Of a stretch of DNA of 64,000 bases, positions 2,152-52,872 are shown piece after piece. The translations under genes and the position numbers were made by a program. The notes beneath the pieces were generated by a model. The model saw only the letters and a list, made by a program, of their open reading frames with translations. It did no database searches and was not told the origin of the DNA. The stretch covers positions 13,138 through 77,137 of the IMG/VR virus record IMGVR_UViG_3300005095_000179; one strand, 5' to 3'. Positions within the stretch are counted from its first letter, which is position 1. Each line of letters opens with the position of its first letter. The DNA is from a virus.

Positions 2152-3546
2152 TCAGTCGTTTCTAAAGTTTCTTTCTAGAGCAGAAACGAGTGAGATTGAG
2201 TTGCTGTTCGATCTAGTGATAGTTCCGTTTGCCTTAACATACTGAGCTTTATCAGTACCAATAGCAACAACTGAAACAGGAGCGTCAGTTCCTGGGGTTC
2301 TACCGCCTTGGTCGTTACCATCATAGTCGAATGTGAATTGAACTTGAGGCCCAGTTACCTCTCCTGCAATGTCAACACCGTTTTTATCCTGTACAATAAT
2401 CGCATCAGAGTCACCGAAGTTGTTCCCATTAGCGTCTGTAAAGAACATTCTGTAGATAGCAGGTCCACTGTCTTGTACGAGGTTGTCGTTGAAGTTCAGA
2501 CTTCCTGCCGCAACGAATGGAAATACTCTCTTAGCACCATTGATATCGAAGAATTCAATACGGTTGATATCGATTTCAGCGAAGTTGTCAATGAAAACTC
2601 CATCTGATGTTACCAATGTATCACCGACGAAACTTAGTAAGTCGTCTGCTGTCTTACCAATTACAGTACCAGAACCAGCATCGATGTCACTATCTTGTCT
2701 TAGTTGATATTGAACAAATTCGTAAATCTCTTCAACTGTTGGGAAATTCCCATCATCACTAACGTCAGCATCAATGATTATATCAAACTCATAATCGTCA
2801 GAACCAATAGTTCTAGTCTGAGGATCAGCGTAATAAGTGATTGACATATCAGTGTATGGAAGTTCATTAGCTACTGTTGTATCATCGTGAGTAATTTTAA
2901 GGTCATCGCTGTTAGCTAGTGGGAAACGATATGCTTGGTAGTTAAATGTCGTAACCCCGATGTCTGACATTTGAGACTGAGCATATTGCTTTTGGTACTC
3001 ACGAACGAATATCTTAAAGTAACTCTTATAATCTTCTGCACTTGAGTTATCAACACCATTACCACTACCGTCACCAAAAACTTTAATACACTGGTTTACT
3101 GGACCAGTTAATACGACGTCTGTTGGAGAACCGTCTACTTCTTGTTGGTAATAAACTTGGTCTGTATCGCCAAGAGTACCTAGAGTAATAACTCCTACAT
3201 ATTCTTCAGCTGACGAACCGTCTTCGTTTTTAATAGCGAAACCACCATCCCTGAATAAGTTTACAGTATCTACATTTTCAGGTTTCCAAGAGTCAATAAA
3301 TTCGAATTGCTCTGGTGTAATCGCTAGCATAGGGAAAGGATATTTGATTAGTTCATCATCATCTTTCCATTCTTCTTTTAAGTATGAATATAACGCTTGG
3401 ATAGTAACACCATCAGTCGTAAGGTCTCCGTAGATTCCAAGAGTGATAGTTTTAGTTCCAGCATCAATCCAAATGTTCCCGTCATTTCCAAGTTCGGCTT
3501 TAGCACTTGCGCGAACAAGTAAATCTGGGTCAGTGATCTTTGCCAT
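2152..3546 (-). CDS. virion structural protein (acidic, beta-rich)
   Basis: 464 aa; AGGAGG RBS; own late promoter (3614) and downstream hairpin, suggesting an abundant structural protein. Confidence 0.6.
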   Translation of the reverse strand: MAKITDPDLLVRASAKAELGNDGNIWIDAGTKTITLGIYGDLTTDGVTIQALYSYLKEEWKDDDELIKYPFPMLAITPEQFEFIDSWKPENVDTVNLFRDGGFAIKNEDGSSAEEYVGVITLGTLGDTDQVYYQQEVDGSPTDVVLTGPVNQCIKVFGDGSGNGVDNSSAEDYKSYFKIFVREYQKQYAQSQMSDIGVTTFNYQAYRFPLANSDDLKITHDDTTVANELPYTDMSITYYADPQTRTIGSDDYEFDIIIDADVSDDGNFPTVEEIYEFVQYQLRQDSDIDAGSGTVIGKTADDLLSFVGDTLVTSDGVFIDNFAEIDINRIEFFDINGAKRVFPFVAAGSLNFNDNLVQDSGPAIYRMFFTDANGNNFGDSDAIIVQDKNGVDIAGEVTGPQVQFTFDYDGNDQGGRTPGTDAPVSVVAIGTDKAQYVKANGTITRSNSNSISLVSALERNFRND

Positions 3547-9807: not shown

Positions 9808-10965
9808 TCAACATTCTGGTTCAATGTTTCCGTCAGCTAACATCTCGTTACCGTTAATGTAATAGATATTCCCATCATATGCTTCCCAAGCAACACAAGT
9901 TCCTAATAGATAGATAGCATAAAGTTTATCTTCCATAGACATTTGTTGGTCATTTACTGCTGCGAAGTACGCTCTATAAGTTTCTTTTATATATCTCATT
10001 TCTTCAGTAGGGATAGATAATAACCTATTAATATCTAAGAAGTAATTGAAATTGTTCCCGTCCCAAATCAATGATTTTATATCAAAAGGGAATTGAATAT
10101 CAGTCCTTAGTGTTTTAGAGTTGTCATCTTCTTCAATCGTACTAAGTTCTAATATAGCTAAGAGTCTTTCAAATCTCATATACCACTGGTTGATTTCATC
10201 TTCATTATGTGCTGGTAAACCACCTTCTGGATTAAACATATCTAAATCCATAAGAGTTTGGACTCTTTTTCTATTTAAAATTAAAGTTCCAACCAAAGTG
10301 TCGTGGATGTACAAATCAGCATGTGTGTCGTGTGAAAAATATTGTAATTGATTATTGCCGCCTAAAGTACCAGCCATATGAGGATTGTTCTCATCCCAAC
10401 TTGGATTACCCTCTGCGTCTCTTACGAGTTGTTTCGTTCTATACTTGAAATCTACTCCAGGAAAGAATTGTGTATTAAACAAGAACTTAGAGTAATGAAC
10501 ACAATTCCCTTCTGAGTTCACCCAAATAGCGTACTTATATTCTTGATCTCTGATGACTTCTGTCATAATAGCACTCAACTTAAATGCTTCTCCAGAGTCA
10601 ATGTTCAACCAAGCATCGCCTATTTGCCATCCAACTAAATCTTCTTGTGTTGGATTTCTATGTCTGATTTTAGGTAGTCTTTGAATTTGGTCTATCTTAT
10701 TCCATACATTTGCCTCAGCATCATATCTATAAATAGAACCGTCTTTAGTATAAAGAGCAACCTCATCATCTTCTCCAACAGTATTATTCATTTCTGTTTC
10801 GGTGATGAAGTATCTATCAATCCTTAACCCGTAAAGGAAATCAATCGTACCAGAGAATTCTGCGTCAAGCGTTTTGAAGAATTCTATCAGTAAATCATAA
10901 CTTACATCAAAGTTGTCTTCCTTAGAAGGGAAGACCCACTTTCTAAATTTACTAGCAAAGCTCAT
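9808..10965 (-). CDS. tail-associated protein
   Basis: N-terminus WVFPSKEDNFD resembles YVFPLKDEDL of the neighbouring gene; GWQIGDAWLN fibre motif. Confidence 0.5.
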   Translation of the reverse strand: MSFASKFRKWVFPSKEDNFDVSYDLLIEFFKTLDAEFSGTIDFLYGLRIDRYFITETEMNNTVGEDDEVALYTKDGSIYRYDAEANVWNKIDQIQRLPKIRHRNPTQEDLVGWQIGDAWLNIDSGEAFKLSAIMTEVIRDQEYKYAIWVNSEGNCVHYSKFLFNTQFFPGVDFKYRTKQLVRDAEGNPSWDENNPHMAGTLGGNNQLQYFSHDTHADLYIHDTLVGTLILNRKRVQTLMDLDMFNPEGGLPAHNEDEINQWYMRFERLLAILELSTIEEDDNSKTLRTDIQFPFDIKSLIWDGNNFNYFLDINRLLSIPTEEMRYIKETYRAYFAAVNDQQMSMEDKLYAIYLLGTCVAWEAYDGNIYYINGNEMLADGNIEPEC

Positions 10966-11989: not shown

Positions 11990-14900
11990 CTATATCTTTT
12001 GAGTATTTAGTCTCAAGTTAGAAACAACTGGTCTAACAGCATCATTCGGTGTAGACATAATCAACTTAACTCTAGCTAAATCTTGAGAAGCAGGAATTAC
12101 TGGAGTTCCTCCGCTTTGTAACTCAAATGTGTATCTAGTTTCTACCCAATCATTCCCTAACGGAGTTGATGTTGGGTCAATAGTCATATCTAACCAATCA
12201 TAGTCTCCAGTACTTTCATTCAGTACTTGAAGTTGAGCAGCAATAGAAGTACCGCTTGGTTTATAGTTATCAATGTAAAGTACTACTCTCTCATCATTTC
12301 TATCAATAGGGAATCCTAAAGTAGTGTAAGTTGATGTCCTATGAGAATACCCCAAAGACAACTGAATGTTAGGGTCAAGTACAGGAGTATAAAGTCCATT
12401 TGACTTAAACACTGCCGTTACTCTAACTCTTCCAGTGTACCCTTCATCAAGAGGGAACTGAGAATAAGAGTTTACTAAGAATACATTATCTAGAGAAGCA
12501 CTCTCTGGTCTGTCAAGTAGTTCAACTCTATACTGGATTGAAGTACCCTCGTACACCTTAGCATTTGCTAATACCATCATATCAGTAATACCATTAGGGT
12601 AATCACTTGAAGTAATGGCGAAGATGTCATAAGGGACTTCATATTCTCTTACGAAATCACACCCATGAATCCAGAACCTCATATCTTCTTTTTGAAGTGG
12701 AGTCCAAGCACTGTTGTTAGAACTGTTGTAAAGAGTACCAACAGAATACGCTTGTCCTGTCAACCAAATACTTGGTAAATCCCAAGTTTTTCCACCCAAT
12801 TCTGCGACTTGAACTCTACCAACAGCATCTTTACAGATGATAATAAATGCGTATTCCTTACCTTTAGTAAGAACAATCTTATTATCAAAGATAAATGGTT
12901 GGATACTTCCTCTTGGCTCTAATTCACTAGGTGAAAGAGTCTTACTGATAAGTGCTTTGTTTTTATCAGGGAAACCTGCTGATGTTTCACAAAGAACACA
13001 AGATACGTCTGTTGTTGGTAATGTATGGAACACGACTGAAATTCTATCAATGGCAATTGTCTCTTTAATTACAAAAGACTGAGCTACTGGGTCAGCTTCT
13101 CTCCATATGATTCCTTGTCTTCTTACTACCCATCTCCACCAGTTCGTTACAGTTGTCTGTACTGTTCTTGAAAGTGGTTCAGCTCTAAATAGAGTAGTAC
13201 CAGAAATTCCTGTCTGAGCACCGACTACTTTTACTTCTTTTGACCCACTTAATATCCCAGATGGAACAACAAATGTACTATTAAGAGTTCCTTTCTCGTC
13301 AACATTAACTGTTCTAGCTAGTTTATCATCAAAGTATATATTTACTGGCTCATTCCCATCAAACGCTTTATAATTCGATTTAATCTTAATAGTGATGCTA
13401 GGAATAATAGTTGGTTTCCTAGCGTGTTGGATACTTGATGATCTACTCACAGAAGTCCCGAGTAATTCTCTAGTAACACTCTTAGAAACAGTTTCTCTTT
13501 CTTGGACTGTATGCCACTTATGGGTTCCGAATACTTTATATCTTGTTGTCCAAGAGTTAATCCCTCTTGTAGCTACTTGTACTTGTTTAACAAAAGTCTT
13601 ATAAGATGTTTTACTCACCCATCTATAAACAGAAGGGTTAATGTAAATCTTTGCACCAGGAGGTGATTTGAACAAGTACTCGTTGATCAATCTTGTCTTT
13701 GTGACATGTGGTTGGCTTAGAATAGCTGTCGACCTTTTAACAGAAGGCATCTCAATGGTCATTTGCTCTTCTTTCATGTCAATGTCTGGGTCTAAGTTCA
13801 CATTTTCCCAGTCAATGTCCATAATCAAGTTCCCACCGATAGTCATGGCAGTATTGTCTAACCCAAGGTCTCTCATAGTATCATCTTCGAATGAGTCTAC
13901 AAACTGTCCTTGTAGCCTTGCTCCTGGTTGATTCTCAGCCAAGTTAGACTGAAGAGCGATTCTAGTTAAGTTATATTCATTTTGTTTAATACTATCTAGT
14001 AACAATTGGATGTCACTCATTTTAAACACTCTTTGTGAAGAAAGAGTAACTACTGGGTCAGCGTCTCCACTAAGAAGGATTTCAGCAATCTTTAGCGTCA
14101 AGTCTGGGTCAGTGTCAGGAACTCTTGGGTCATTTTCATCAGGCACACCTTTTACGAATCCAATCTTCCCAGTTGCGTCTATGAACATAGCGTCTATTCT
14201 CTGAAGGACAAAGTCATAATCATACTGAACATCAGTCCCATCAGCGAAACTAAACAAATACAATGACTTTAGGTCGTCAGAAATCTCACCCATAGTTTTC
14301 CCAGTTGCTGGGTCTACAGAGAAGTTTCCTTCTGTTTCAGTGTATTGATATTTGTAGTCTACATAATAGGTAGAAGAAGGAGATGGTTCATTTGCTCCGG
14401 CTACCCAAGTAACACTATCTCCAACAAGAACATAATCAGTACCTTGTATATAAACAGTACTTCCTTGGTAGATTTTATCTATACTTCTTACTGGCTGATA
14501 TTCATTCGGTAATTCATCTGAAGCACCAATGTAAGAACCGTGCTGTACTGGTTCACCCATTCTTTGTCTTTGACCAGAAACCCTAAACACCTTTCTTATT
14601 GGGAAGTGTCTTACAGGATAGAAATTATCACCAGAGTTGAATGAAATAGGTTCATCTTGTTTAAGCTCAAAGTCGATGAGTTGGTCTAAAACAATTTCTT
14701 GTGAAACGTCAATTTCAAAGTTATAGCCGTCCACGTTAGCACTACCGTCGGCAACAGAGAACTTAAATGGCCCAAGGTTAGAAGTATTTCCGTCTTCGTC
14801 TGGAACTCTCCCTATATATGCAGTTTCATACCCGTGTACAAGGTAGTTACCGTTAGCATTTCTATCGTATTTCGCAACAATGTTGATAACGTCTTGTCTG

Positions 14901-44151: not shown

Positions 44152-44859
44152 TTATTTAATAAAGAGTCTATCTAGCTCTTCGTATGTTTCATTGCTTGCT
44201 TTTAGTATGTCTATATTAGATGCCGCTTGTAATAACGCTCTGAATGTTTCATCATCTTGAGCATCATTACTTTCTCCTGCTAAGTCTCTTTTAGCATAAA
44301 TGTACATTTTAGGGTCTTGGAAGAATTGGACGATATCTGTAAGTAGTTGATATGAGTTTTCTTCTAATCTACCGTAAACATATGCTTCAAGTAGTTCTGT
44401 TTTTAACACACTTGAATCTTCCACAAATGCGTAAAGTAGCTCTAAGAACTGAGCCATTGCTTCTGGGTCTGCTTCATAATACTGAAGTTCAAGATATAGA
44501 TGAGTTTCTATACTACTAAGACCGAGTAAAGCATCATTCACTTGTTCCATAGATAACTCTACATAATTTAGACCAGGAGTGAGTTCTTGGTTATAATAAG
44601 AAACGGTTTCTCTCAAAGCATTGAATCTTCCTAGTGCTCTATGGAATCTTTTCCCAGCAGTACTTTTATGCCATTTCTTAATTCCTTTTTGGATATGATG
44701 TTTGTTTCTTCTCCAACTATTTTTCATACTTCTTTGTTTAGAACGGTCTTTAGCTCTGATGTCGCTCTTCTTCACTATTTGGAGTCTTTTTCTCACTTCA
44801 GCTTCATTTAACCCAAGGAGGTCGTATTGTACTTCATCTATCTTTGATTTAAACTTCAT
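44152..44859 (-). CDS. prohead core protein (gp68-like position)
   Basis: LNE site followed by a highly basic segment; between portal and protease. Confidence 0.5.
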   Translation of the reverse strand: MKFKSKIDEVQYDLLGLNEAEVRKRLQIVKKSDIRAKDRSKQRSMKNSWRRNKHHIQKGIKKWHKSTAGKRFHRALGRFNALRETVSYYNQELTPGLNYVELSMEQVNDALLGLSSIETHLYLELQYYEADPEAMAQFLELLYAFVEDSSVLKTELLEAYVYGRLEENSYQLLTDIVQFFQDPKMYIYAKRDLAGESNDAQDDETFRALLQAASNIDILKASNETYEELDRLFIK

Positions 44860-46359: not shown

Positions 46360-46366
46360 TATTTAA
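46360..46366 (-). promoter_or_regulatory. late promoter TTAAATA
   Basis: Upstream of the portal gene. Confidence 0.7.
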
Positions 46367-46367
46367 C

Positions 46368-48341
46368 TTAGTTCACGAACTGCCCAGTTACTCCCTCTCC
46401 AAAAATGTCGGAGAATGGTTCAGCTTCATCATACCAGTCATTACCAACTACTTCATCTAATTCTTCGATAAAATCTTTATCTAAGTATGGTTTGTAATCA
46501 ACCTTAGTTCCTAGTATCCATATAGAGTTCGTTACTGCGTCAGCTATATCTTTACTCCCTGGAGTTCCGTCTTGGTTATGTTCTGGGTGATCTACCTTTT
46601 TATCGTCTTCTTTTAAGAAAACAAGTTCTCTATAAAGAATTTGATTATTCGGACCCTTTATTCTTTCGTCTATAATGGCATTTCTTAAACCAACATATGG
46701 GTCTTTCTTCCTATCTACAGAATTCATGATAGTTTTTATCCCGCCCTTCTCAAGAAGTTGTAGAGTATCAGTACTTTGGTAAGAATCCGAAACGACGTAT
46801 TCTATGTTTATCCCTAATCTCTGAAGTTCGAATATGAATTCCCTTATCTTATAAAGTTTTAGCTGTTCTCCTTTCGGTGGTCTAATACCAACAGCAAAGT
46901 CAACCCAATAAGAGAACTCTTTTAGTTCTCCTTCTCCAACAGTATCGTGAATATGAGACATACATAATCCATACCTATCCCCACTTACTGCTATGTCCAG
47001 ACCGATTACTTTTTGACTTCCTGGTTTAAACATATCTATTTTATCTACATCGAAGAAATCTATTAGGTTATCATTCTCGCCTAATATAATCTCATCCAGC
47101 TCACAAGCACCGTGTAATACTAAAGCGTTTTTTATCTTCTCTTTGAAAGGAATAAAAGTCCTTACATCAGAAACAGCCATACCGAGTACGTCTCTGATAC
47201 CAGCATAAATATCATCAAATTCGCCTCTGTATTCTATCGGTACATCAAATATCTTTGTTGGGTCAAATCGTTTTGCTCTTTCTAAGTCTTTATCATTTTC
47301 GATGAAGAATGGATCTGACTGATAGTCACCGATGAATACCTTGAAAGTTTCTCCTGAGTATTTTATCTTATGCTTAAGAACCTCAAATCTAGGAGCTGAG
47401 ATAACTAAGATATCTGATTGAGAGAATTCAGAGTCTTTCTTCCCTTCAGCTTCTGATTTTTCTTTAGCATTATCTATCATTGTCTGTATAAGAGACCCTT
47501 CAGTTGTCGCAGAAGATATCATAGTATAGTGTCCAGCCCATTTGTTTCCTTTTAGTAGGAAACGGGAGTTGATCCTATTATACATTTCTGTGATAATATT
47601 CTTAGAACCACCCTTTTGGATTTCTTGGTTTACCTCATCAGAAGAAGCCGCATACACGTTTTTACCAACAAGTGAGTGCTTTCTAGACACCATATTAATA
47701 TCAATGTTATTGATAAATAGAGATGACCTAGATTTTGTGTTGTCGAATTTAGACCTAAAAAACGGGCTTTCTCTAACTAGAGACATTATTGGGTCATAGT
47801 TCACCTGCTCAATATTTTCCATAGTTGAGTTTGTTAGGGTGAAATATATCTTTGCTGATTTAGGAAGTTTGAATCTCAACTGAGGTTCATCCATACAAAG
47901 GAGTCTTGCTAAGTCGTAAAGGAAAATAATTGAAGCCACTGTTGTGTTGTGGTGAATGGAACCATCTGGCGTAGTATAAAGGTGTGGAGCATCTATCCCA
48001 AAATCATAGACTACTTCGTCTTCTTTTTCTTTATAACTTTTTATTATCTTATAAGATTTTCCATCTTTATTATCTATAGATTTTGCTTCTGAAATTAAAG
48101 TTTCTTCTCCGCCAGAAATAACTTTGTGTTTATCTGAAGTTTCTAACCTTTCTCCATTTTCAAGTTCATAAGTATAAATATCAGATTTTTTCGTAACAAA
48201 GAAATTTATCTTAGATAAAGTTTCTTCAGGAGTTTTCACATAAACATCACAAGGAGTTGAGTGCGTTTCTTCTCTTTCCCCATTGTGTTTGATACCAAGT
48301 CGTTTATATAGTTCTCCTATTGGAATTCTTATTTTCTTCAT
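46368..48341 (-). CDS. terL: terminase large subunit C-terminal part, with N-terminal split-intein IntC (aa 1-132)
   Basis: Block B ETSDKHKV, block F VYDFGI and block G IHHN|T; then Walker B ASSDE and nuclease motifs GLDIAVSGD and KVDHP...SKDIADA. Confidence 0.93.
   Translation of the reverse strand: MKKIRIPIGELYKRLGIKHNGEREETHSTPCDVYVKTPEETLSKINFFVTKKSDIYTYELENGERLETSDKHKVISGGEETLISEAKSIDNKDGKSYKIIKSYKEKEDEVVYDFGIDAPHLYTTPDGSIHHNTTVASIIFLYDLARLLCMDEPQLRFKLPKSAKIYFTLTNSTMENIEQVNYDPIMSLVRESPFFRSKFDNTKSRSSLFINNIDINMVSRKHSLVGKNVYAASSDEVNQEIQKGGSKNIITEMYNRINSRFLLKGNKWAGHYTMISSATTEGSLIQTMIDNAKEKSEAEGKKDSEFSQSDILVISAPRFEVLKHKIKYSGETFKVFIGDYQSDPFFIENDKDLERAKRFDPTKIFDVPIEYRGEFDDIYAGIRDVLGMAVSDVRTFIPFKEKIKNALVLHGACELDEIILGENDNLIDFFDVDKIDMFKPGSQKVIGLDIAVSGDRYGLCMSHIHDTVGEGELKEFSYWVDFAVGIRPPKGEQLKLYKIREFIFELQRLGINIEYVVSDSYQSTDTLQLLEKGGIKTIMNSVDRKKDPYVGLRNAIIDERIKGPNNQILYRELVFLKEDDKKVDHPEHNQDGTPGSKDIADAVTNSIWILGTKVDYKPYLDKDFIEELDEVVGNDWYDEAEPFSDIFGEGVTGQFVN
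47946..48341 (-). mobile_element. split intein C-fragment (132 aa, no endonuclease domain)
   Basis: Ends His-Asn followed by Thr+1; lacks an N-terminal Cys1. Confidence 0.9.
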
Positions 48342-48368: not shown

Positions 48369-48375
48369 TATTTAA
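48369..48375 (-). promoter_or_regulatory. late promoter TTAAATA
   Basis: Upstream of the IntC-TerL gene. Confidence 0.7.
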
Positions 48376-48417: not shown

Positions 48418-48696
48418 CTAAGAGTATTTCTCTAGGTGAAGTTCAGTGGCTCTAAGTAGTTTTGCGTTTCCTCTTCCTAGAACACTTGGGTTTGTTAGCA
48501 CTTCTTTCTTTTTAAATCTTTCTTTTTGAGAATTATCAAACATTATTTTATCGAAAAAATGAGAAAGTATTTGTTCTGTATCTGTTGATTTTTTATTACT
48601 AAACGAGTCATAGACATTAGGAGAAAAGAACTCTGAACTAGAGGTTTTTCTTGCTAATTTAGAGAGGTTGCTTTTTAGACTATTTGATATCGTCAT
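48418..48696 (-). CDS. hypothetical protein
   Basis: 92-aa ORF; weak RBS. Confidence 0.35.
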   Translation of the reverse strand: MTISNSLKSNLSKLARKTSSSEFFSPNVYDSFSNKKSTDTEQILSHFFDKIMFDNSQKERFKKKEVLTNPSVLGRGNAKLLRATELHLEKYS

Positions 48697-48761: not shown

Positions 48762-48791
48762 TCTTGGCTTGAACAAGTGTTCAAGCCAAGA
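48762..48791. repeat. 14-bp perfect inverted repeat
   Basis: TCTTGGCTTGAACA-AG-TGTTCAAGCCAAGA. Confidence 0.85.
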
Positions 48792-48830
48792 GTTCCTAAT
48801 TCATCGACCTTTGTTATAAAGAAGTCAACT

Positions 48831-49637
48831 TCAACAGTCAAATTTACCTGAAACACATCCTTCGATGTACCACTCTGGTTCGTTTCCTTCTAATGGAGAA
48901 TTCTTAAACATGTCTTTAATATAGTTTAAGTTTTTAGGTTCCCACTTAGAGATATCTCCGTTGAATTCTGATTCTTCAAACATACAACACGTACTGGTAA
49001 CATTCCCGACATTCCACTTAGAGATATCTCCGTTGAAAGAAGATTGTCTGAACATGGTACCCATATCATTTACATTACTTACATCCCATTTAGAGATATC
49101 TCCGTTAAAAGAAGACCCATCAAACATCCCATACATACTCCTAACATTCCCAACATTCCAATTAGAAATGTCTCCATTAAATTTAGAATCATAAAACAAA
49201 TCTTCCATATCAGTGATTCTAGATACGTCTATGTCATTTAGGTCAGCGTCATCACCTCTTTTTTCTATTAATTCATTTATTAAAGATTCCAATTCTTCTT
49301 CATTTTTAGGAAAGAACTGATAAACTTTTCCACTAGGTTTTCTCGGTGGATTAGAACCTAAACTTCTTCCTAAGAACTTTTTCATGTCTCGTACTTTAGA
49401 AAGGTCTTTAATTGACTTTAGTTTTCTTGAAACTGAGAAATACTCATCACCTTCTTTGAATCCAACCAAGTACCCTTCAGTGTTGAAGACTAAAGTCATA
49501 TTGTCGTATTCTACTTCTAACCTATCCGGATATGTTTCGATGTTGATGGTTTTTGAACCTATGTAGTCCTTAATTAAAAACAAATACTTATCTGATTGGG
49601 ATCCGATTTTTAATTCTTGGATAATTTCTCTTATCAT
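48831..49637 (-). CDS. BspA/DUF285-family repeat protein
   Basis: DLNDIDVSRITDM and repeated FNGDISxWxVxNVxxM units; AAGGAG RBS; late promoter at 49665. Confidence 0.85.
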   Translation of the reverse strand: MIREIIQELKIGSQSDKYLFLIKDYIGSKTINIETYPDRLEVEYDNMTLVFNTEGYLVGFKEGDEYFSVSRKLKSIKDLSKVRDMKKFLGRSLGSNPPRKPSGKVYQFFPKNEEELESLINELIEKRGDDADLNDIDVSRITDMEDLFYDSKFNGDISNWNVGNVRSMYGMFDGSSFNGDISKWDVSNVNDMGTMFRQSSFNGDISKWNVGNVTSTCCMFEESEFNGDISKWEPKNLNYIKDMFKNSPLEGNEPEWYIEGCVSGKFDC

Positions 49638-49664
49638 TTTTGCTCCTTATGAAAATTCTAAAGT

Positions 49665-49671
49665 TATTTAA
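49665..49671 (-). promoter_or_regulatory. late promoter TTAAATA
   Basis: Upstream of the DUF285 gene; overlaps the stop of the 53-aa ORF. Confidence 0.65.
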
Positions 49672-49829
49672 TCTTCCATGTATTCACTTAATTCATATTT
49701 TTCGATATCTTCGTCACTCATACTGTAAACTATCTTTAGAATCCCATTCACTGATTTTGATATAGGTTGTTGAAGTTTATCTATCACTTCTTTCTCGAAA
49801 TTTATTCTTACTTGTATGAATTTTCCCAT
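49668..49829 (-). CDS. 53-aa protein with RHH-like N-terminus and IntN-like acidic tail (not in ORF track)
   Basis: MGKFIQVRINFEKEVIDKLQQPISKSVNGILKIVYSMSDEDIEKYELSEYMED; AAGGA RBS; overlaps the end of the endonuclease gene. Confidence 0.7.
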   Translation of the reverse strand: MGKFIQVRINFEKEVIDKLQQPISKSVNGILKIVYSMSDEDIEKYELSEYMED

Positions 49830-51663
49830 AATTTTTCCTTATTCTATATTTATAGTTTCCGCAATCATGAAATATCCTATATCCATTTATCATTAAATTT
49901 TCATTCGCTGTGAGGTGTTCGTTGAAATTTTCTAGTAAGTTCTTTAGTTTATGTTTTTGATACTTCATCCTATTCTCTAATTTAAATGTTTTAGGATTCA
50001 AAACGAACATGTTTGGCTTTGTGATTGATAACATTTTAGAAAACTTGGAATACACATTTTCCTTAAATGTCCACCTTCTATTCCCATATGAAATGATTTC
50101 TTCTACATTATTGTATTTGAAATATTCATTCAACAACTTAGAGTATCCTCCAATGACAATGGTGTTTCTCAGTGAAGCAAATCTATGAAGTTCGTATTCG
50201 TCCTTAAATCTAGACTTTCCGAATGTCATAACTGAAACTAATTCTCCATCTATCTCTAAACCAAAGTTTTCCTTCGCAGCAGTACTTCCTTGGAGATGAT
50301 TTAAATCTAAAAATTTAGAAGCTTCTTTATGAGAAATTCTTCTTACTTTAGTTTTTCTAGCTGGTATTTTATCAGCTTTCCCAAGTTTTAGGAGAATTTT
50401 ACTTTTCCAAATTTCTTTTTTAATTGGGTCTAACCACTCATCTTCGTTTATATGAAATAAGTGAATATCTCTTTCTTCACACAATTCAGTTTTATTCAGG
50501 TGATAGTTCTTGTCCATAATCTTATTGAACTTTTCGTATTTAGAAATTCCAGAGGTGTGATACATTAATCCGTTGAATTCTATCGCAAAGTTCAGTTCTG
50601 GGATAAAAATGTCTAATTCAAGAGGAGTAATGGTTCTCCTGTCATTCTTTCTTACTTCACCATTATAGTTTTCTTTTATGAAGTCATATATCTCAAATTC
50701 TAAACTTTCTCTTCTGAAGAATTTGTCATCAAATCCCATATCTCCCAATATTGGAATTAAGTATGCTCTAGAAACATTATAGTACTCTTCCATTTCTTTT
50801 AAGGAAACCTTATCTCCTTTAAGAAATTTATCTTCCACCACTTTCTTAGAAAGTTCTAAATCTGAATTAAAATCTTTGAAGTAGTAATGTCTAACTCCAT
50901 ATTTCTCAATGAAAGTAGCTTCCAATGAATTATACCATTTTCTATTTCTTTCTTCAAAAATCTTTAAGCCAAGTTCTTCTCCGTACTTTTCTATACATAT
51001 TTCTTTACTGAACCGTTTTTGAATTTCACTGATTTTCTTTCTAGCTTCTTCCTCACTAAGTCCTCTTTTGGTCCAATACAGTACTTGTGTATAAGTGACC
51101 CTTTTACTTGAATTATCTGAATCCCAGAATGTTTTAGCTAAATCACTTTGGTACTTTGACACCAATTCTTTCGCTTCTTTTTGTGAGAATCCTTGAGATA
51201 TATGCCTTTCTTCTCTATTTGGAAGATTTCTAGTTCTTTTCTTTATAAGTTCTTTTCGTTTTTGTTCATAATCATCTTTATATTTCTTTTTCATGAATGT
51301 CTCAGAACAAGAATCGAAAATCTTTCTTTCTTCTTTTGACATTTTTTGTATAGTAGAAGTTCCCTTCTTAGAATTGGTATCTGCTAAAGATTTTGACATT
51401 TCCTCAGCTTCTGTTTCGGAATATCCCCTGATAGTCCAAAATTCCTTTCTGAAGAAACTTTTTTGTGATCTACCGTATATTTCATTGTAGAATTTTGCGT
51501 GGAAGTACGAGTCATTGAAAGTCTCATCTAAGTTTTCTTCAAACCACTGCTTTATTTCTTTAGTATGATGTTTGTAATTATGGTCTTTTGATTTTAAGTA
51601 AGTGTCGAATTCTTCTAAAGTTTTTATTTCTTTGAAGAATTTTCTGTTTTTGTTAAGTTTCAT
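49777..51663 (-). CDS. free-standing Hef/Vsr-like homing endonuclease
   Basis: ELDIFIPELNFAIEFNGLMYH...HINEDEW nuclease core; ARKTKVR...FLDLNHLQG domain; WTxRGxSExEA repeats. Confidence 0.85.
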   Translation of the reverse strand: MKLNKNRKFFKEIKTLEEFDTYLKSKDHNYKHHTKEIKQWFEENLDETFNDSYFHAKFYNEIYGRSQKSFFRKEFWTIRGYSETEAEEMSKSLADTNSKKGTSTIQKMSKEERKIFDSCSETFMKKKYKDDYEQKRKELIKKRTRNLPNREERHISQGFSQKEAKELVSKYQSDLAKTFWDSDNSSKRVTYTQVLYWTKRGLSEEEARKKISEIQKRFSKEICIEKYGEELGLKIFEERNRKWYNSLEATFIEKYGVRHYYFKDFNSDLELSKKVVEDKFLKGDKVSLKEMEEYYNVSRAYLIPILGDMGFDDKFFRRESLEFEIYDFIKENYNGEVRKNDRRTITPLELDIFIPELNFAIEFNGLMYHTSGISKYEKFNKIMDKNYHLNKTELCEERDIHLFHINEDEWLDPIKKEIWKSKILLKLGKADKIPARKTKVRRISHKEASKFLDLNHLQGSTAAKENFGLEIDGELVSVMTFGKSRFKDEYELHRFASLRNTIVIGGYSKLLNEYFKYNNVEEIISYGNRRWTFKENVYSKFSKMLSITKPNMFVLNPKTFKLENRMKYQKHKLKNLLENFNEHLTANENLMINGYRIFHDCGNYKYRIRKNYGKIHTSKNKFRERSDR

Positions 51664-51726
51664 TCATACTCCCTGACTTGATACAGTCTTTTAAGCTTAA
51701 ATATGAAATAATCGTTGGTTAAAGAT

Positions 51727-52089
51727 TTAATCGACGAATTCTTCTAAGTTATATTTTTCTATATCTTCTTCTGAAAGATAGAATTCCATTTCCTGTTTTT
51801 CACTCAGACATTTCCCTATCCCCGTTGCCCCACTCAATAAAACAACCTTATACTTATTAGTTTCATAAAAAGGTGTTGGGAATATATCCACAAGCCTTTC
51901 TTTCCAGAATGGGAAAACAGCTTTTCCACCATCCAAAGAACCACCTAAATAATAATCATTAGAAATAAACTCAGAAATTGTTGGAGGAGTTTCTATGTAA
52001 GAATTATTCTTAGCATAAAGGTCGAAGAGATAGTTCATATCTCTTCCATCTAAAGATTCTATTCTATCTTTATCTAATTTCAGGCTCAT
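51727..52089 (-). CDS. terL: terminase large subunit N-terminal part with C-terminal split-intein IntN (aa 94-120)
   Basis: PPTISEFISNDYYLG, then Walker A LSGATGIGK followed by CLSEKQ... instead of T. Confidence 0.92.
   Translation of the reverse strand: MSLKLDKDRIESLDGRDMNYLFDLYAKNNSYIETPPTISEFISNDYYLGGSLDGGKAVFPFWKERLVDIFPTPFYETNKYKVVLLSGATGIGKCLSEKQEMEFYLSEEDIEKYNLEEFVD
51730..51810 (-). mobile_element. split intein N-fragment (27 aa)
   Basis: CLSEKQEMEFYLSEEDIEKYNLEEFVD; Cys1 directly after the Walker A Lys. Confidence 0.88.
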
Positions 52090-52243
52090 CTTCTTCTCTT
52101 TTCTTTTTAGGATTTGGAGCAGTAGGAATTACTCCTAAATCACCATATCCTCCATCAGCACCACCATTACCGACACTTACAGTTGCTCCTGAAGAAGCTG
52201 CCTCTCCTTCTTCTTTAATCTTTTTGATAGTTTCTCTAATCAT
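52070..52243 (-). CDS. 57-aa protein (not in ORF track)
   Basis: MIRETIKKIKEEGEAASSGATVSVGNGGADGGYGDLGVIPTAPNPKKKREEDEPEIR; GAGGA RBS; fills the gap between flanking genes. Confidence 0.8.
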   Translation of the reverse strand: MIRETIKKIKEEGEAASSGATVSVGNGGADGGYGDLGVIPTAPNPKKKREEDEPEIR

Positions 52244-52865: not shown

Positions 52866-52872
52866 TATTTAA
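52866..52872 (-). promoter_or_regulatory. late promoter TTAAATA
   Basis: At the boundary between replication and packaging modules. Confidence 0.7.

Follow-up and report, generated by a model that had tools for sequence, protein, structure and literature searches.

A small open reading frame that ends in a second, Cys-less copy of the tail of a split-intein half raises the question of whether this copy acts as a protein on the intein or is a trace of how the locus was assembled. The ORF lies in a window of 64,000 nucleotides (the whole stretch of DNA analysed here), which is part of a 77,137-bp IMG/VR viral contig, and all genes around it are encoded on the minus strand. A first-pass annotation of the same sequence had proposed, on the one hand, that the encoded peptide could bind the C-terminal intein half of the terminase TerL as a decoy, timer or DNA tether and, on the other hand, that it is a relic of a duplication made when an endonuclease cassette inserted. 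The genes are transcribed in the order terL-N, homing endonuclease gene (HEG), ORF53, DUF285-repeat gene, ORF92, terL-C and portal gene. The features needed for the argument are the following:

51727..52089, minus strand: terL-N, 120 aa, composed of a 93-aa N-extein that ends in SGATGIGK (Walker A) and the 27-aa IntN CLSEKQEMEFYLSEEDIEKYNLEEFVD, followed by the stop codon.
49777..51663, minus strand: free-standing HEG, 628 aa, matching phrog_3339 'homing endonuclease' with E=1e-93.
49668..49829, minus strand: ORF53, 53 aa, a chimeric orphan ORF with an ATG start; residues 1-33 are without detectable origin and residues ~34-53 are a copy of IntN residues ~9-27.
48831..49637, minus strand: DUF285-repeat gene, 268 aa, matching PF03382 with E=2.9e-45.
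48418..48696, minus strand: ORF92, a small gene directly upstream of terL-C, conserved in HEG-less relatives.
46368..48341, minus strand: terL-C, IntC fused to the TerL C-extein, of which the first residues are TTVAS.
47946-48341, minus strand: IntC, the first 132 aa of TerL-C, of which the last residues are HHN.

IntC residues 4-93 align with positions 8-90 of the Pfam Intein_splicing profile, and the best PDB matches of IntC are DnaE inteins (E~0.02). In intein-less relatives (P0025 and L005-L010), SGATG(I/T)GK is joined directly to TT(V/A)S, and the proteins of these relatives align to TerL-C from residue 133. Therefore, the intein is made up of the C-terminal 27 residues of TerL-N and the first 132 residues of TerL-C and lies inside Walker A. 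To this intein, IntN contributes only the first strand and a 17-residue acidic tail. The TerL-N homologues (n=25) are each about 120 aa long, and their tails share the consensus C-x-G-x-N-Q-E-[LM]-E-F-x-[LM]-S-[ED]-E-D-I-[EK]-K-Y-[GN]-L-E-E-Y-[VI]. The E. coli phages IME392 and EP_H11 were considered as carriers of an intein at this site and rejected because their TerL is intein-less.

Several observations concern the neighbourhood rather than ORF53. Walker A together with IntN (51754-51834, minus strand; TerL-N residues 86-112) gave a weak recurrent match to the P-loop of shikimate kinase AroK (NCBIfam E=0.005, far below the cut-off; PDB 1kag, E=1.2), which is probably a chance resemblance. 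In one related locus (L042:2884-3188), matches to terL-N occur in two frames that meet near 3094, just before the P-loop; this could reflect a frameshift or a sequencing error. Upstream of terL-N, a 57-aa ORF (52070-52243, minus strand) encodes the peptide GGYGDLGV(I/V), which is common to the ORFs at the same position in relatives (L003:9870-9923 and L004:9852-9941). The DUF285-repeat gene occurs in the intein gap at this locus only and at none of the related loci; it has its own promoter-like motif as well as a terminator-like hairpin near 48765-48792, and it looks like a moron-type insertion. ORF92 has tblastn matches of ~29% identity at the same position in L004 (10351-10626)/L037 and in L036 (543-788) and may be part of the split-intein locus. 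GC and GC3 content marked neither the tail labelled A nor the HEG as clearly foreign.

The tail of ORF53 reads VYSMSDEDIEKYELSEYMED and that of TerL-N EFYLSEEDIEKYNLEEFVD, each ending at the stop codon, and, as the first-pass annotation had stated, EDIEKY is identical in the two. An HMM built from 24 TerL-N homologues, with the window's own sequence left out, matched ORF53 residues 34-55 (stop-to-stop numbering) with E=3.8e-4 among the 1538 ORFs of the window, and the second-best ORF scored E=1. The match extends to the C-terminus in both ORF53 and TerL-N, and a shuffle of column scores over ORF53 residues 34-52 gave z=5.8. Specifically, ORF53 ends in [LM]-S-[ED]-E-D-I-[EK]-K-Y-x-L-x-E-Y-[VI] and thereby retains 11-12 of the 12 positions that are strongly conserved, as well as the alternation of hydrophobic residues; the net charge of this tail (-7) is close to that of the complete IntN (-8). 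At the DNA level, the two tails differ at 20 of 54 nt, the synonymous codon differences described earlier are real (Ser TCA/AGT and Ile ATA/ATC), and the similarity passes the stop codon to reach about 10-30 nt into the leader. A match as short and Glu/Asp-rich as this one might be expected if two unrelated acidic helical C-termini resembled each other by chance. However, the gap between the profile score of ORF53 and that of the next ORF, the C-terminal position of both copies, the DNA similarity beyond the stop codon and the presence of the same architecture in L003 make such a coincidence hardly credible. We conclude from these profile and alignment results that the last ~20 residues of ORF53 are homologous to the conserved IntN tail that ends TerL-N.

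The homology is confined to this tail. Upstream of residue ~33 there is no significant similarity between ORF53 and TerL-N (protein p=0.055; DNA 35/99 identities, P=0.08), and ORF53 therefore lacks Cys1 and block A, in agreement with the original description. Moreover, ORF53 does not have the start of an IntN, i.e. a Cys or Ser1 that follows an N-extein and begins C-x-G-x-N-Q-E-[LM], and the nearly invariant IntN residues Gln6 and Glu7 are Leu and Lys in ORF53. Because BLAST and the ungapped alignment set PISK/S on GIGK/C, with Ser26 and Lys25 on Cys1 and Lys-1, we considered that ORF53 could be an alternative IntN in which Ser26 would serve as intein residue 1 after Lys25 and the 25-residue N-part would be trans-spliced onto TerL-C, giving a TerL isoform without Walker A. 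According to PMC11766414, Ser1 is natural in the GOS-TerL intein, but it inactivates the close homologue AceL-TerL; together with the replacement of Gln6 and Glu7 and the non-significant similarity before residue 33, this makes an alternative IntN very improbable, and the upstream homology itself (P-loop Lys and Cys1 on Lys25 and Ser26) was rejected as no better than chance.

The 33 N-terminal codons of ORF53 have no protein or DNA match. One apparent match of the N-part, in L025, falls within a 355-aa primase-like protein and was discarded as chance, while an internal ORF53 repeat (residues 5-25 versus 31-51) and an older second relic in the C-terminal extension of the HEG were both rejected as non-significant, at p~0.05 after scanning many offsets. 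ORF53 as a whole has no family match in Pfam, NCBIfam, PHROG or PADLOC. The N-half had been likened to a ribbon-helix-helix (RHH) DNA-binding domain, a resemblance that we did not recover: neither Pfam nor NCBIfam gave a match (E<0.1), and the single-sequence AlphaFold model of ORF53 has a long helix (3-36), a short helix (39-44) and no strand (pLDDT 72). Because no alignment exists for ORF53, this all-helical model is weak evidence on the RHH question. The AlphaFold model of TerL-N, which was made with an alignment, has a pLDDT of 55.6 and shows the tail as a short helix (107-112) only, which is silent on docking; the confidence of this model is low. The two models agree only on the short helix formed by (D/E)EDIEK (ORF53 39-44 and TerL-N 107-112).

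ORF53 has several features of a gene. The 53-aa ORF and RBS reported in the first-pass annotation are present, with AAGGA six nt upstream of the ATG, and the frame is open over 56 codons in AT-rich DNA. The codon-usage LLR of ORF53 is 22.9, compared with 23.1+-8.8 for real 53-codon windows; most of this score is contributed by the inherited tail and the region of overlap with the HEG, and the non-overlapping N-part has a weak coding signal (LLR 1.8 over 15 codons). The overlap arises as the HEG carries an 18-codon C-terminal extension (49777-49829, minus strand) relative to its three orthologues, which stop after GN(Y/I)KY in the 3'-end alignment; the extension covers the first 18 codons of ORF53 in a different frame, and ORF53 starts exactly where the orthologous HEGs end. 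There is no promoter motif in front of ORF53. Searches for homologues returned only ORF53 itself among 5.8 billion clusters (near and longer length classes) and, in a search that used no word filter, among 1.84 billion representative proteins, none in IMG/VR or in GenBank phages, and no usable match in the ESM Atlas. Similarly, about 10 related split-terL loci contain no ORF53-like protein.

These data bear on the idea that ORF53 is an expressed small protein unrelated to the intein, such as a DNA-binding or regulatory accessory of the HEG cassette, in which the tail would be a passenger. In line with this idea, ORF53 has its RBS and start codon precisely where the HEG usually ends, and Dassa et al. 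(PMC2677866) noted that start sites of the downstream gene are provided by HEG 3' ends; in addition, the N-part is basic (+3) and predicted to be helical. Nevertheless, we consider such a function improbable, given that ORF53 has no family match in the four libraries and no homologue anywhere, that the orthologous HEG cassettes of L003, L012 and L050 contain no such ORF, and that the coding signal in the non-overlapping N-part is weak.

The DNA on the two sides of the HEG was compared. Orthologous HEGs occupy the same position, directly after terL-N, in three other loci (L003, L012 and L050), giving four loci with the window. In the window, the HEG is bracketed by two copies of the same stretch (repeat family D1):

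51664..51789, minus strand: left copy X, running from the final ~20 codons of IntN through the stop codon and leader to the ATG of the HEG.
49638..49730, minus strand: right copy X', in which IntN-tail codons and their stop codon are followed by a ~30 nt leader up to the start codon of the DUF285-repeat gene.

A local DNA alignment of X and X' gave z=5.2 against shuffles. In L003, the bracket is 66 nt long and comprises the last 16 terL-N codons, the stop codon and the leader to the ATG of the HEG (z=12.7); its right copy (12219-12285, on a contig shared with L049) extends from the HEG stop to the ATG of the next gene and reads TAA-EDDIIKYGLS-TAA. Because it has stop codons on both sides, this second tail lies outside any protein and is dead. 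In L012, the bracket measures about 95 nt and consists mostly of intergenic leader (z=25.5). Here, the right copy (12000-12095) again ends at the ATG of the next gene, and the 60-nt leader copies at 10321-10380 and 12016-12075 are 92% identical. L011, the HEG-less sister of L012, has this stretch only once (9970-10047), and the two loci form a clean before/after pair for HEG insertion. By contrast, the HEG of L050 has no flank duplication, and the terL-N stop codon overlaps the HEG start (TAATG, 2241-2246); the bracket is, therefore, not obligatory.

Thus, a bracket is present in two of the three other HEG-carrying terL loci and in no HEG-less locus, and none was found around 16 HEG homologues in other genomic contexts (z<2). 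In a six-frame scan, a second copy of the tail was detected only in the window and in L003, both of which carry the HEG, and not in the HEG-less split loci L004, L011, L036, L039 and L042. In the window, L003 and L012, two copies of the gene end flank the endonuclease, the one upstream in frame with the host gene and the one downstream displaced, as in the mORFs of fungal mitochondria discussed below. The proposal that ORF53 contains a relic of a duplication made at insertion of the endonuclease cassette is supported by these findings, both by the tail copies and downstream DNA that bracket the HEG here and in L003, and by L012, where the duplicated stretch is the intergenic leader. We consider it very probable that the duplication of the tail is linked to the HEG.

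The divergence between the two tails also bears on their origin. The ORF53 tail is identical at 12/20 positions to tails of other phages (P0003 and P0020) and at 9/20 positions to the resident tail. When neutral decay was simulated from any sampled tail, it essentially never gave the observed profile score (P<5e-5), and we therefore take the divergence of the ORF53 tail to have arisen under constraint. Taken alone, this result could indicate selection on ORF53. When the dead copy in L003 is compared with the resident tail, none of the first four differences changes the encoded amino acid; this argues that the dead copy, too, came from another functional allele. Together, the 12/20 versus 9/20 identities, the synonymous differences in L003 and the matching signature of the mitochondrial mORFs argue for inheritance rather than for selection on ORF53. 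The two copies thus behave as alleles that diverged under protein constraint and not as a fresh tandem duplication, and the simplest reading of the sequences is that the two tails are alleles of two phage lineages that were joined by endonuclease-driven recombination. The protein-level conservation pointed out in the first-pass annotation holds for the tail, the divergence of which was constrained, but can be explained by descent from a functional terL-N allele without selection on ORF53.

The right copy also contains elements that may act at the level of DNA. At its end lies a further feature:

49665..49671, minus strand: TTAAATA, a late-promoter-like motif that overlaps the stop codon of ORF53.

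This motif is situated 27 nt upstream of the ATG of the DUF285-repeat gene, with AAGGAG in between, and this geometry recurs ahead of terL-C and the portal gene and also of about nine further genes. TTAAATA occurs 24 times in the window, which is fewer than expected by chance, and 19 of the 24 copies are on the minus (coding) strand; about 11 copies precede, by 18-33 nt, a start codon that has an AAGGAG-type RBS (minus-strand examples: 52866-52872, 48369-48375, 46360-46366 and 44153-44159). Based on this distribution, TTAAATA is probably the late promoter of this phage. The left copy X, upstream of the HEG, has the degenerate motif TTAAATC, and in L003 the leader in the right copy contains TTAAATA about 20 nt before the ATG of the next gene. 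Because of the geometry of TTAAATA and RBS, a role of the right copy as promoter and leader of the downstream gene is plausible. Hairpins spanning the stop codon of terL-N or located in the right copy folded no better than shuffled sequences (z about 0), and Rfam gave no matches.

Our working hypothesis is that entry of the HEG, or its later move between diverged phages, placed a working IntN end with its stop codon and leader upstream of the HEG and left a second, allelic copy of the same stretch downstream. The downstream copy would derive from a terL-N allele shaped by protein constraint, which would explain how it can have conserved residues and synonymous differences without selection on ORF53. 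By chance, the displaced tail would have come to lie in frame with 33 upstream codons, begun by an RBS and ATG at the usual HEG end, and the two parts together would make up the orphan 53-codon ORF. The copy would most likely have been kept for a DNA-level role, in that it provides TTAAATA and the AAGGAG RBS for the next gene. We infer this order of events and a peptide without function; either of the two copies may be the native one. Overall, we favor the view that ORF53 is a by-product of HEG invasion, including that it has no evolved protein function, and we hold this with less assurance than the link between the tail duplication and the HEG. Several observations count against it. An open frame of 56 codons with an ATG, a well-spaced AAGGA and typical codon usage is more than a bare scar needs; the strongly conserved positions of the ORF53 tail are intact while the L003 copy decayed; the 33 N-terminal codons have no match that would account for their origin; and the HEG of L050 lacks the duplication in a set of only four HEG-carrying loci.

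Some of the same observations would be expected if ORF53 had been exapted as a decoy or timer. In that case, ORF53, born from the scar and translated late, downstream of the HEG, would dock its acidic tail on IntC-TerL-C and slow terminase maturation; lacking Cys1 and the first strand, it would block or delay productive assembly with TerL-N-IntN. The open frame, the RBS, the gene-like codon usage, and the retained conserved residues and alternating hydrophobic pattern of the tail are compatible with such a role, and the acidic IntN (-8) faces a basic partner in the first 30 residues of IntC (+3). Furthermore, IntC contains all HINT motifs except N1, as in the fractured terminase of Dassa et al. 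2009 (PMC2677866), and the short IntN must, therefore, supply the contacts for binding. Association of the fragments of engineered 'caged' split inteins is strongly inhibited by a truncated segment of the partner (PMC12321220). The decoy idea is chemically reasonable. Comparative data give it no support, however. ORF53 is a singleton among the 1.84 billion representatives and 5.8 billion clusters and, contrary to what co-occurrence with split TerL would predict, has no homologue in any other split-terL locus, where the only other second copy is dead and closed by stop codons; there is no promoter motif ahead of ORF53, and the HEG that precedes it has the degenerate upstream motif; and conservation of the tail is accounted for by inheritance from a functional allele. 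The DNA tether likewise has no comparative support, and the RHH resemblance was not recovered. A literature search yielded no example of a natural trans-acting split-intein decoy. On this evidence, we regard an exapted decoy or timer as unlikely. If ORF53 nevertheless inhibits splicing, it would provide the first natural case of an intein antagonist that acts in trans, as well as a new gene from the scar of a selfish element.

Reading the Cys-less IntN copy as a scar of the endonuclease, we suggest that it is a footprint of the spread of a free-standing HEG, which would bring a spare gene end and leave the old one behind. The footprint would mark roughly where the HEG acts, within the last 4-20 codons of terL-N, and would identify these terL loci as mosaics of different phage alleles. 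In intein engineering, the ORF53 tail represents a natural truncated IntN, minus its first eight residues, belonging to an atypically split intein of 27 and 132 residues. We found no description of a gene-end footprint of an HEG in phage fractured-intein loci; such footprints are documented in fungal mitochondria.

Among known systems, the split intein described here resembles GOS-TerL, AceL-TerL and Cat-TerL in its very short IntN (27 aa versus 25-37 aa; PMC11766414) and in a long IntC with every motif but N1. Fractured terminases likewise have an endonuclease gene between the halves and also occur as HEG-less alleles (PMC2677866 and PMC11766414), and Dassa et al. (PMC2677866) proposed that control regions for the fractured gene arrive with the invading endonuclease. 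The available portions of PMC2677866 and PMC11766414 contain no mention of a second partial IntN copy. In contrast to the characterised TerL inteins, the intein in the window has Cys1/Thr+1 and separates the Lys of Walker A from the Thr; no relationship to these inteins could be demonstrated from its sequence, the best PDB matches being the DnaE inteins. This locus also differs from the fractured terminases in having the DUF285-repeat gene and ORF92 as extra genes in the gap. If the decoy idea were true, ORF53 would be a recently arisen, natural equivalent of the engineered 'caged' split inteins (Gramespacher/Muir; PMC12321220), in which a truncated piece of a fragment occupies the partner and prevents association. 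Occupancy of the partner is how a decoy would act here; in contrast, the caged inteins are designed constructs, usually fused in cis.

The closest likeness to the preferred explanation, a scar of HEG invasion, is found in the mORFs of fungal mitochondria, which consist of a foreign gene end, an endonuclease ORF and a displaced native end (Beaudet et al. 2013, PMC3630166). They are exemplified by atp6 of Allomyces macrogynus and by atp6, atp9, cox2 and nad3 of Glomus, and the two atp6 ends have 63.5% nucleotide and 91% amino-acid identity (PMC3630166). As at the terL locus, the order is working end, endonuclease ORF and displaced copy; the copies are low in nucleotide identity with conserved residues, and the displaced copy is decayed to a variable extent. 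The terL locus differs in that it belongs to a phage, that the gene end encodes the last two-thirds of an IntN of 27 residues rather than part of a respiratory protein, and that the endonuclease is of the phrog_3339 family rather than LAGLIDADG or GIY-YIG. Finally, the phage duplication extends over the stop codon and the next gene's leader, and its displaced copy has become part of a new open frame.
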